Virus record (IMG/VR): IMGVR_UViG_3300008113_000007
Coordinates: 1-64,000 of that record
Length of the DNA: 64,000 nucleotides
Direction: 5' to 3' (one strand)
Source: a virus
Lineage: Duplodnaviria; Heunggongvirae; Uroviricota; Caudoviricetes
Shown here: in pieces, positions 11,748 to 14,474 of the stretch
How positions within the stretch are numbered: position 1 is the stretch's first letter
Layout: each line of letters opens with the position of its first letter
Notes under the pieces: model-generated
Database searches by the model: none
Seen by the model: only the letters and a program-made list of their open reading frames with translations
What the model was told of the DNA's origin: nothing
Translations under genes and position numbers: made by a program

Positions 11748-12194
11748 TGCGGCTTTGTCGCTTTTTGGGTGGTCGAAGTAAAGCGTCTTGTGACCTCGTT
11801 TGTTGTCGTAGTACCTGACCTTCACGTCCAGTCCTTCGTCGAGTATCGTCTTGATTGTTTGTCCAATTTGGCTAGGCAGGATCTCACCTGATATTTTCAC
11901 CTCGAGGATCTGCTCGTCCTTTATTATGAAGCTGATTGTGTCCGTCCTGAACGCTGCATTGTGTATGTACTGGATGGCGTCCGTGTTAGTGTATACGAGC
12001 AGGTTGGCATCTTCGATGTCGAACTGAACCTTCTTTCCCTGGTTTAGAAGCCCGGTGATCCTGACCTCTCTTTTGAACTCGGCCCACTGTTTGTACCTTC
12101 TTAGCATGCTCTCGAAGGATTCCAGGGTGATGCCTTCCTCGAGCTCTACATCGAAGGTGCTTACAACCATATCTCTTTCCTTCAGCTTTCCCAT
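11745..12194 (-). CDS. hypothetical protein, translationally coupled to the upstream RNase gene
   Basis: Start codon overlaps the stop of the 12194..14092 gene. Confidence 0.45.
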   Translation of the reverse strand: MGKLKERDMVVSTFDVELEEGITLESFESMLRRYKQWAEFKREVRITGLLNQGKKVQFDIEDANLLVYTNTDAIQYIHNAAFRTDTISFIIKDEQILEVKISGEILPSQIGQTIKTILDEGLDVKVRYYDNKRGHKTLYFDHPKSDKAA

Positions 12195-14092
12195 CAGTTG
12201 AACTTTATGAAGTCAATCTGTTTTTTCTCTAGGTCCACGGACTTGATGACGATCTTGATTGGATCGCCTAGCCTTATCTTTTCGCCGAACTCGTTCATCA
12301 CGGCGTAGCTGTCAGGATAGGCAGTCCATTTTCCGCCCATTTCCGAGATTCTTATCATTCCCTCGCACTTGCTCTCCGTGAGCTCTACGTAGATTCCTCT
12401 CTCGAGTACGCCTGATACGATTCCGTCGAACACCTGTCCGATTCTGTCCTGTAGGTACTCCGCCTGCTTGTACTTCACCGAGTCTCTCTGTGCCTTCGTC
12501 GCTACGACCTCCTGCTTGGAGATCCATTCGCACTGCTTGTCCAGCTCGCCGTGGTTTATCTCTTTGTTGTAGCCTTCTGCGTTGAGCGCCTTCGAGAGAA
12601 GTCTGTGTGCGAGTATGTCACTATACCTCCTTATTGGTGATGTGAAGTGTGAGTAGTGTTGGAACCCTAGTCCGTAGTGTCCGATGTCTTTGGTCGAGTA
12701 CTTCGCCTTCTGCTGAGCCCTTATGATTAGGGTGGTTATGATGTTCTCCTCTGGTGTTCCTTTGGAGTCTCTCATAAGCTGGTTTATGGCCAGCTTGGTC
12801 TTCTCTGCTGAGTTTCCGTAGTTTATCATATAGCCAAGCCCGGAGATGAAGGTCTTCACGTGCTCTAGCTTTTCCTCTGCTGGCTCTTCGTGTATCCTGT
12901 TCACGCACGGAAGGTGCCTAGACTTTATGAAGCGCGCGACCTCCCTGTTGGCGAGTAGCATGTACTCCTCGATGAGGTGGTTGGCGTCCTTCTGTTCCTT
13001 AAGGTAAACGCCAACCGGCTTCTTCCCGTCTCCGTCGAGTTTGAACTTGACCTCTACCCCGCCGATTTCCATCGAGCCTCCGTTCATCCTTCTCTTCCTC
13101 ATCTTCTTTGCCAGTCGGTCTAGCTCGAGTATGGCCTTCTCTGTGTCTAGCTCGGCGTTGCCTCTCTCGATTACCTCCTGTGCCATCTCGTATGAGAAGT
13201 CTTTGTCGACCCTTACCGCGGTTCTTCCGAACCAGCTGTCCTCTATCCTACCGTCGTTGTTCAACTCGACTATGACTGAGTAGCACAGCTTGTCACTTCC
13301 GGATTTCAGTGAGCATATTCCGTTTGATAGCTTGTGTGGTATCATCGGCACGCACCTGTCAACTAAGTAGACGGAGCTGGAGCGCTTGTACGCCTCTTTG
13401 TCTAGTTCGCTTCCCGGCCTTACGTAGTGTGATACGTCTGCTATGTTTATTGCGATTAGTCTTCTTCCGTTCTCGAAGTGTAGAGAGATTGTGTCGTCCG
13501 CGTCCTTCGAGTCGTGAGGGTCAATACCGATCGTGGTCCACGACCTTATGTCTCTCCTCTTCTTTATCTCCGACTCCGGTATGACCTCTGTTATGAGCTC
13601 CGCCTCGTTCAGTACTTCCTGCGGGAAGTCGATAGGTAGGTTGTATTCGTACATTATGGCGTTCATTTCCGTCTCGTTCTCGCCTTTCAATCCCAGTACT
13701 TTGGTTATCCTTCCTCTCGGAGATTTCTTTTCCTTTTCCCAGTCGATCATCTCGACGATGACTTTCTGGCCATCCTGTGCTTTGTGGTCTCCTTTGATGT
13801 AGAAGTCGACGACCATCTTCGGGCTGTCTGGGACAACGAAGGTGTGGTTCTTGCTAACCTGTGCAGTTCCTACGAAGGTCGTCTTGAACCTCTCTAGCAC
13901 GTCGACGACCTTCGCCTCCATTTTGCGTTCGCCTTTGAACAGAACTGCCCTGACCTTATCGAGGTGCAGGGCGTTGGCGGTCTTCTTCTTGTGCACGAAG
14001 AACTCTCTTTCGTCGATTTTGATTGTTGCGTTACCGGAACCGGTGAACTCTATCTGGGCCTCTATCGTGTCGCCCTCTGTGTATTTACTCAT
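12194..14092 (-). CDS. RNB-family 3'-5' exoribonuclease (RNase R / RNase II-like) with N-terminal OB/cold-shock domains and a C-terminal S1 domain
   Basis: RNB motif I '[15 protein letters not shown]'; catalytic '[28 protein letters not shown]'; C-terminal S1-like '[20 protein letters not shown]'. Confidence 0.85.
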   Translation of the reverse strand: [632 protein letters not shown]

Positions 14093-14474
14093 TTTCTCTT
14101 TTCTTTTTGGAGATGTTGTCTACGCCGTACTTCTCCATTATTGTTTTCTTCATTTTACCGAGCACCATCTTGTTCTGTATCGGATAGTCGACGCCGAAGT
14201 TCTTTCTGAGCGTCTTTATTCTTTTGATCTCGGAGCACTTTCTGCAATAGTACTCTCCGAAGTTGTTACCGTATCTGAGGTAGTTCTTGTAAATGACTTG
14301 TTTCTCTATGCCGCATCCGTCGCACTGGCAGGTTATCTTGTAGTGTGATCCTTTGGGTAGTAGCTCGACCGGTATTACAATGGTCTCGCCCAGCGCGGTG
14401 TCGTAACCCAAGTCGTCGTAGTACTGGTAGTTGTGGTCTGTAATCTTTACGGGTATTTCCCTGGTTGTTATCAT
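14085..14474 (-). CDS. zinc-ribbon protein (CxC...CxxC), first gene of the RNase operon
   Basis: 'CQCDGCG ... CRKCSE' Cys pairs; overlaps the start of the RNase gene. Confidence 0.45.
   Translation of the reverse strand: MITTREIPVKITDHNYQYYDDLGYDTALGETIVIPVELLPKGSHYKITCQCDGCGIEKQVIYKNYLRYGNNFGEYYCRKCSEIKRIKTLRKNFGVDYPIQNKMVLGKMKKTIMEKYGVDNISKKKRENE

Follow-up and report, generated by a model that had tools for sequence, protein, structure and literature searches.

The first 64,000 nucleotides of the IMG/VR virus record IMGVR_UViG_3300008113_000007 (positions 1-64,000, hereafter the window, whose coordinates are used throughout) encode a 632-amino-acid (aa) protein that, judged by its sequence, appears to be a hydrolytic 3'-5' exoribonuclease of the RNase R type, intact and more similar to RNase R than to RNase II. 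Comparison with related phages indicates that this gene is real and ancestral, and that it represents a phage-specific, domain-reduced RNase R lineage kept in a conserved head-module context. The gene is the second of a minus-strand unit of three, in which a zinc-ribbon (Zn) gene, the RNase R gene and a gene for a 149-aa protein (p149) follow one another between the plus-strand portal and protease-scaffold genes. A previous interpretation of the same DNA without database searches (the sequence-only reading) had described a full-length RNB exoribonuclease with a zinc-ribbon and a 149-aa neighbour, all three on the strand opposite to the portal and prohead protease genes between which they lie, and the open reading frames (ORFs) bear out this layout, the motifs that it quoted being found in the 632-aa translation. 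Its range of 12194-14474 covers the Zn and RNase genes, but not the 149-aa gene, which sits at 11745-12194.

Pfam searches with the 632-aa protein gave matches to RNB (E-value 2.1e-99, covering positions 1-325 of the 326 of PF00773), CSD2 (4.9e-24) and S1 (4.5e-8), and its domains, OB_RNB, CSD2/OB_Dis3, RNB and S1 in this order, reproduce the architecture of the RNase II/RNB superfamily, whose NCBIfam model TIGR00358 it matches with 449.9 bits for a cut-off of 368.6. The solved structures place it beside RNase R, since PDB chains of that enzyme match with values from 1e-107 to 1e-77 versus 2e-34 for RNase II, the best relative being B. subtilis RNase R (8cdu_C, 9.4e-107). The NCBIfam equivalog models for RNase II reach 177-207 bits against cut-offs of 542-642, while the RNase_R equivalog (TIGR02063) gives 596.6 bits over profile positions 62-707 of 711, just under its cut-off of 597.85, a marginal shortfall explained by the N-terminus that the phage enzyme is missing. 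PHROG 13933, annotated as 'nuclease', also covers the protein. The residues required for catalysis and substrate clamping, D191, D197, D199, D200, Y242, R488 and R489, align with those of the solved enzymes (the counterparts in RNase II being D201, D207, D209, D210, Y253 and R500) and are invariant in 60 of 60 phage homologues. In the PDB alignments, SVY stands opposite the clamp tyrosine and HFTSPIRRY opposite motif IV, R488 and R489 being the arginines of PIRRY. The sequence-only reading had staked its case on the motif I aspartates, and these are conserved on alignment throughout the 60 homologues.

The N-terminal helix-turn-helix (HTH) domain is absent, since Bacteroidota enzymes of 710 aa align with the phage protein only from their residue 79-92 onwards, and there is no tail rich in lysine and arginine (K/R-rich) at the C-terminus, the phage protein ending 4 residues past the S1 match.

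To place the gene among phages, a scan of viral contigs yielded 183 relatives, and gene order was compared at 85 loci (L001 and L003-L086). The order major capsid protein (MCP)(-), protease(-), Zn(+), RNase R(+), p149(+), portal(-) was found in 85 of 85 loci wherever the flanks were present, and the only exception was L083, where tblastn missed the fast-evolving p149 yet its ORF is present. An identical RNase R protein with the same neighbours also lies on an independent NCBI metagenome contig. The nearest genome, that of an uncultured phage of 634,780 bp (LR745206.1), is collinear with the window over the whole region, with identities of 78% for the portal, 73% for the protease, 72% for the MCP, 70% for the Zn protein, 53% for RNase R and 24% for p149. 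Among the matches listed in a search with the RNase R protein, 120 clusters showed 53-94% identity and lengths of 624-650 aa, bar one 509-aa fragment; the contigs of all four clusters inspected (within L003-L006) were phage with the same gene order, one of them 629,742 bp long, and the conserved Zn gene is present on contigs of up to 817 kb. RNase R appears to be under strong purifying selection similar to that of the portal, with ratios of nonsynonymous to synonymous substitution (dN/dS) relative to the closest relative of about 0.018 and 0.019, respectively, both rough because dS is near saturation. The base composition of the window reveals no foreign island. A chimeric assembly and absence from relatives, which the sequence-only reading had named as the findings that would count against it, are contradicted by the shared order in 85 loci and by the independent contig, and these comparisons show that the arrangement is neither an assembly chimera nor a recent insertion.

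The closest cellular homologues of the enzyme come almost all from Bacteroidota (Pedobacter, Mucilaginibacter, Bacteroidia), with 43-48% identity and a median length of 711 aa, and their extra residues correspond to the N-terminal HTH-type domain of about 75 aa that the phage protein is without. In a neighbour-joining tree built from distances and rooted on Salmonella, the phage enzymes were monophyletic in 98 of 100 bootstraps, and they formed a clade with the Bacteroidota enzymes and one gut contig in 81 of 100. On the question that the sequence-only reading had put to a phylogeny, host-derived or an ancient phage lineage, the enzyme comes out as Bacteroidota-derived and as a single phage clade. 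Portal similarity, which falls from 78% for LR745206 and 77% for LR756502 to 52% for LR756504, 47% for LR756501, 36% for LR756500 and 32% for Lak phages, places the window in the Mahaphage group. In the outgroups LR756501 and LR756500, the protease directly follows the portal with nothing inserted, and in LR756504 a 612-aa DUF7487 gene occupies the site of the RNase unit on the opposite strand. Taken together, the sister position of the Bacteroidota enzymes, the monophyly of the phage ones and the portal-protease order of the outgroups suggest that the ancestor of one Mahaphage subclade captured a Bacteroidota-like RNase R a single time, that the HTH domain was lost and that the gene was fixed in this subclade and then inherited vertically at the portal/protease site. 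The proposed insertion into a T4-like head block thus stands in relation to more distant Mahaphage genomes, but not as an oddity of this one, being ancient and vertically inherited. Mahaphage genomes above 634 kb have Bacteroidetes as predicted hosts (PMC7162821), and the phage family of about 0.63 Mb probably infects Bacteroidota.

Bacterial rnr loci contained no Zn or p149 homologue, with the sole exception of L091 (2562-4821 of JALOAD010000047.1), binned as 'Candidatus Muiribacterium halophilum', in which the phage Zn gene lies directly upstream of RNase R; mis-binning of a phage contig probably accounts for this. Mis-binning may likewise affect contigs assigned to Janthinobacterium and Bifidobacteriaceae on which a Bacteroidota-like RNase R is found.

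Two variations of the unit were observed among the relatives. Five contigs have RNase R split at residue ~510-513 into an RNB ORF of 509-524 aa and an S1 ORF of 122-124 aa; both halves are well conserved where aligned (L075), and in L013 and L078 the gap holds an opposite-strand, homing-endonuclease-like ORF with DUF4379 and DUF723. In about 28 loci, roughly a third, p149 and the portal are separated by a fourth same-strand gene of ~144 aa with a weak DUF6576 match. The window does not have this gene, and a relationship to p149 or to the protease was considered and ruled out, the protein being unrelated to both.

The sequence-only reading had supposed that the Zn and 149-aa proteins could be specificity or regulatory subunits of the nuclease, an idea that is weakened by what the two proteins seem to be and by the layout of LR756502. 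There, the Zn gene (68%) and a genuine p149 homologue (E 4e-33) form a directly coupled pair beside the portal. The RNase R of this genome shares 55-57% identity with the phage clade and 47-48% with bacterial enzymes, and is found ~150 kb from the portal locus amid unrelated small ORFs. As the two genes remain at the portal when RNase R sits far off, they are probably resident head-locus genes that are co-expressed with RNase R and not its obligate subunits.

Regarding p149, Pfam and PHROG profiles gave no family match for the window protein, and among 41 members of its family none matched Peptidase_S77 and 3 weakly matched phrog_207. An exhaustive profile search returned 111 cluster representatives, all free-standing, ~130-180 aa long apart from short fragments and without extra domains. 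The structure model is moderately confident (predicted local distance difference test, pLDDT, 73), and its Foldseek matches are weak and mostly to prohead proteases and scaffolds. In hhalign, p149 matched the N-domain of the neighbouring protease (residues 59-130) with a probability of 84.8% as a single sequence and of 94.3% (E 1e-7) profile against profile, whereas a control family in the same test gave 0.1%. The protease His73 (GEFDHP) and Ser128/129 (VSSRA) face non-His and non-Ser positions in the p149 family. From this match to the gp21 fold, with its histidine and serine unmatched, we infer that p149 is a catalytically dead, fast-evolving paralogue of the prohead-protease fold, newly recognised here. 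Against a single T4 gp21 sequence the p149 family gave nothing in hhalign, and only the clade's own protease profile matched. Two other identities were ruled out: an SmpB analogue, by comparison with the Firmicute rnr-smpB pair, because there is no SmpB match and the fold points to gp21, and T4 gp68, because no similarity was found; nor was any found between T4 gp68 and gp21. p149 changes at about 10 times the rate of the adjacent genes (dN 0.35 versus 0.03, dN/dS ~0.2), and it shows an allele-like jump between window positions 11745-12194 and L007 positions 7902-8348, where it is 56% identical and RNase R, portal and Zn are 94-95% identical, a discontinuity that suggests recombination or diversifying selection. 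A rapidly diversifying pseudo-protease coupled to this unit would be a separate small discovery on head-module evolution.

The 129-aa Zn protein has five invariant cysteines (C49, C51, C54, C77 and C80) and a clade identity of 63-95%. It matches phrog_5104 (4.5e-14), phrog_12131 (3.9e-9, profile positions 1-126) and, with 28 bits for a cut-off of 27, DUF7487, and it shares with DUF7487 and PHROG 'homing endonuclease' proteins an N-terminal Zn-ribbon and YGV-repeat module. It covers 42 of 220 DUF7487 and 126 of 313 phrog_12131 positions, whereas full-length relatives have 200-650 aa, and so it corresponds to the N-terminal module of such proteins without their C-terminal, presumed nuclease part. 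Pfam and PHROG profiles detected no nuclease domain in it. The structure predicted for it was of low quality and gave no information. The longer relatives comprise a gene for 201 aa, which in a T4-like coliphage lies between the gene for the tail sheath and the tail gene that follows, and DUF7487 proteins of 535-650 aa scattered through these huge phages. In relatives, the stretch that separates the protease gene from the Zn gene is a hot spot for insertions and holds a 229-aa ORF with an HNH-like motif, a 313-aa ORF or ORFs of the DUF7487 type (518-540 aa; only in L013 was the domain checked); the region in the window (14475-14608) is without insert.

We consider that the best explanation for these observations, to which we give about an even chance, is that the captured, HTH-less RNase R serves bulk RNA turnover in the infected cell, its neighbours not being obligate subunits. 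In E. coli, the HTH domain of RNase R recruits Lon or HslUV and the K/R-rich tail is required for ribosome binding and trans-translation (PMC12320835). Whole free 30S subunits can be degraded by RNase R alone (PMC12320835). Given the role of the HTH domain in recruiting these proteases, the phage enzyme without it would be a stable, unregulated and processive RNase in the infected cell, where it would digest structured RNA, free 30S subunits and host mRNA fragments to nucleoside 5'-monophosphates (5'-NMPs), with removal of host RNA and a supply of nucleotides for a replicating genome of 0.63 Mb. Many huge phages carry genes for nucleotide interconversion (PMC7162821). Several points weigh against this explanation. 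The physiological role is one that we infer purely from sequence, and it is only for E. coli that regulation through the HTH domain and the tail has been established; the closest Bacteroidota enzymes also end right after S1, without a long K/R tail. The host has its own RNase R, so that an advantage of carrying another one has to be assumed. The late-like TATATATA, shared with the protease gene, is the sole promoter element that could be recognised, and late expression would fit host shut-off poorly. Finally, p149 is tightly coupled in translation to the RNase gene at nearly all loci, which could reflect a physical complex.

Both host RNA turnover and counter-defence, the roles that the sequence-only reading had put forward, are plausible, and they have to be weighed together with other possibilities. 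The enzyme might instead work for the phage's own large translation apparatus, in the maturation or quality control of phage tRNA, transfer-messenger RNA (tmRNA) and mRNA or in the clearing of non-stop or cleaved transcripts. Cellular RNase R takes part in the processing of rRNA and tmRNA and in the decay of non-stop mRNA (PMC12320835), and genes for tRNAs, tmRNA, SmpB and ribosomal proteins are known from huge phages (PMC7162821); however, the K/R-rich tail needed in E. coli for trans-translation recruitment is absent from the phage enzyme, scans of the whole 64-kb window returned no tRNA, tmRNA or Rfam family, and the host enzyme could already do such work, so we hold this role to be unlikely. 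An RNase destined for destruction of the RNAs of host immunity (CRISPR RNAs (crRNAs), retron or antitoxin RNAs, cleaved-RNA signals) would agree with the reported participation of host RNase R in crRNA processing and its interaction with a phage anti-CRISPR protein (PMC12320835), and the coupled p149 evolves fast and with allele-like jumps, as arms-race proteins do. RNase R itself, however, is among the slowest-evolving genes of the region and, apart from the generic CSD and S1, lacks any domain for specificity, and no defence-related family was detected in searches that did not include the PADLOC library, which makes a counter-defence function highly improbable.

The position of the unit inside the head-gene cluster, kept in all 85 loci, allows the RNase to be thought of as associated with the head: p149, a gp21-fold paralogue translationally coupled to the RNase gene, would enter the scaffolding core as gp21 does and carry RNase R into the prohead, to be ejected with the DNA or to act at the portal during packaging, and several relatives have a late-type TATATAT 12-40 nt upstream of the Zn gene. 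We nevertheless find this decidedly unlikely, as the RNase R of LR756502 lies at a distant locus with Zn and p149 still beside the portal, neither a signal for capsid targeting nor one for protease cleavage was identified, the unit and the head genes are on opposite strands and the p149 model is only moderately confident. Very unlikely, too, is a bolder proposal, in which either the three genes make up a working head-associated module, with p149 docking RNase R on the scaffolding core or portal so that a deregulated RNase is packaged and injected with the DNA or acts on RNA at the packaging vertex, or the enzyme attacks the 3' end of 16S rRNA in free 30S subunits of the host, within the takeover of ribosomes that has been proposed for huge phages encoding S21 and S1. 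Lastly, the unit could be cargo, selfish or neutral, left behind by a mobile element of the homing-endonuclease type that had landed in an insertion hot spot, with the RNase as a passenger devoid of any role in infection. Relatives of the Zn protein are found among DUF7487 proteins and in PHROG families that carry the annotation homing endonuclease, LR756504 has its DUF7487 gene at this very site, and the adjoining intergenic region repeatedly shows HNH or DUF7487 insertions. Such a passenger is scarcely credible because RNase R is conserved: its catalytic residues are invariant, its dN/dS is ~0.02, and it is kept in every locus examined, even where it has been split into two ORFs or relocated. 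Bulk RNA turnover by a captured RNase R is the explanation that we prefer.

The coordinates of the unit, of its flanks and signals and of the variants in relatives are collected in the following table.

Table. Features of the RNase R unit and its surroundings in the window, and positions of variants in related loci
Feature	Position	Strand	Basis or remark
RNase R-type 3'-5' exoribonuclease (predicted), 632 aa, CSD1-CSD2-RNB-S1	12194..14092	-	Pfam, PDB, NCBIfam
RNB catalytic domain, aa 179-504	12581..13558	-	limits from Pfam and PDB alignments
Motif I aspartates D191, D197, D199, D200	encoded at 13493-13522	-	invariant in 60/60 phage homologues
S1 RNA-binding domain, aa 549-628	12209..12448	-	Pfam S1
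Four-Cys zinc-ribbon protein, 129 aa	14085..14474	-	first gene of unit; phrog_5104, phrog_12131, DUF7487 matches
p149, 149 aa, putative dead prohead-protease (T4 gp21) fold paralogue	11745..12194	-	last gene of unit
T4-type portal	9959..11701	+	left flank; Portal_T4 2.5e-57
Prohead protease fused to scaffold region	14609..16786	+	right flank; phrog_207 2.5e-31
gp23-like MCP	16874..18589	+	Gp23 match
Hairpin between A run and T run, convergent p149/portal genes	11719..11744		AAAAAGACCTC-TATT-GAGGTCTTTTT; -19.4 kcal/mol, z -3.66
Divergent intergenic region, Zn/protease genes	14475..14608		TATATATA at 14572-14579; CTGTAAAAAAACCAC on + strand at 14529-14543
TATATATA elsewhere in window	2284, 8680, 9930, 29103, 52433		
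Composite promoter elements, protease and MCP genes	14529-14579 and 16788-16838		
Split RNase R in relatives	L013 6001-9366; L078 1099-4516; L075 457-2405; L079 5965-7922; L082 5965-7909		
Fourth gene, examples	L003 10327-10761; L004 10312-10746		
Hot-spot inserts, protease-Zn intergenic region of relatives	L001 10799-11488; L013 3968-5575; L079 3978-5600; L083 4032-5588; L016-L019 ~4550-5507		

The three genes of the unit are tightly joined, the stop of the Zn gene overlapping the start of RNase R by 8 nt (ATGAGTAA) and the stop of RNase R overlapping the start of p149 by 1 nt (TGATG). At the far end, the hairpin between the convergent p149 and portal genes is likely a bidirectional intrinsic terminator that closes the unit. 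Many structural genes have the palindromic, T4-late-promoter-like TATATATA 12-37 nt upstream, and in the case of the protease and MCP genes a conserved element, CTGTAAAAANNCCAC, is added ~27 nt before it. The motif GGWTTTTTTAY keeps a constant spacing of 37-38 nt to TATATATA across loci, and this composite also stands ahead of the plus-strand MCP gene, from which it follows that the conserved motif belongs to plus-strand late promoters; on the same grounds, GTGGATTTTTTAYAG was ruled out as a promoter of the RNase cassette, and its match at 61-71 is part of a terminator hairpin. A Bacteroidetes-type TAnnTTTG promoter upstream of the Zn gene was also rejected, since it occurred in 7 of 57 loci only and at variable positions, and a scan for sigma-70 promoters and terminators did not rise above the shuffled background. 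Several relatives have a TATATAT element of their own upstream of the Zn gene, at the distance given above, and late co-expression is possible.

Other features of the surroundings were observed. The protease-scaffold ORF contains the motifs GEFDHP and VSSRA together with a weak Peptidase_S77 match, and within it (15512-15963) a 42-nt repeat in 10.8 copies codes for the 14-aa unit SEY(L/I)AENLDKNIAY. At its end (11507-11681), the portal gene holds repeats rich in Gly, Ala, Gln and Pro, whose periods are 27 and 33 nt. In three relatives, the gene that immediately follows that of the MCP encodes a protein with an RNA-binding NFACT-R domain (L003 2641-3351, L004 3056-3439, L005 3057-3479); the window ORF in the same position, 18653-19129, had no Pfam match. 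Elsewhere in the window, a clamp-loader gene (2306-3268, minus strand) lies amid structural genes, and two very large collagen-like tail-fibre genes of 2179 and 1633 aa occupy 31989-38528 and 42114-47015 of the minus strand.

Phages redirect or inhibit host RNases, and some encode endoribonucleases, but to our knowledge a conserved phage-encoded processive 3'-5' exoribonuclease has not been the subject of a previous study. Literature searches found no paper discussing a phage RNase R, only automatic annotations: the gene of the window was auto-annotated as ribonuclease R by the Joint Genome Institute (JGI), and those of LR745206 and LR756502 carry the same automatic annotation in GenBank-style supplements (PMC7162821). 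What these comparisons point to is a domain-reduced RNase R that is fixed, under constraint like that of the portal, throughout a widespread clade with some of the largest known phage genomes among its members, and that lacks exactly the domain that destabilises RNase R in E. coli. If the enzyme does break down rRNA and mRNA in bulk, this would explain the nucleotide supply of 0.6-Mb genomes and would add an RNA-degradation arm to the translation hijack proposed for huge phages.

Among known systems, the sister group of the phage enzyme, the ~710-aa RNase R of Bacteroidota such as Pedobacter and Mucilaginibacter, has 43-48% identity over residues 10-628, the same CSD1-CSD2-RNB-S1 core and an end just past S1, but differs in its extra ~75-aa N-terminal HTH domain and in loci without Zn or p149 neighbours. 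With the RNase R of B. subtilis (PDB 8CDU, captured on 30S degradation intermediates; 9.4e-107) and of E. coli (5XGU; 2e-77), the aspartate cluster, the tyrosine and PIRRY align, whereas the phage protein starts at CSD1 and ends at S1. E. coli RNase II (644 aa) resembles it in domain count, in similar length and in having neither HTH domain nor basic tail, yet its sequence is much farther from the phage enzyme than that of RNase R. The prohead protease of T4, gp21 (PDB 5JBL), is the known counterpart of p149 in protease-domain fold and profile similarity; unlike it, p149 is without catalytic His and Ser and without a scaffold-like extension, falls far under the Peptidase_S77 threshold, and is a free-standing protein of 135-160 aa encoded on the strand opposite to the head genes. 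A precedent for phage-borne RNB enzymes exists in a cultured phage, Lactococcus phage Q54, whose orf16 is annotated as a 'putative ribonuclease'; this protein, however, is ~30% identical over residues 147-628 only, branches beside the Staphylococcus enzyme outside the huge-phage clade, and is encoded among different neighbours in the replication module of a 26.5-kb siphophage.

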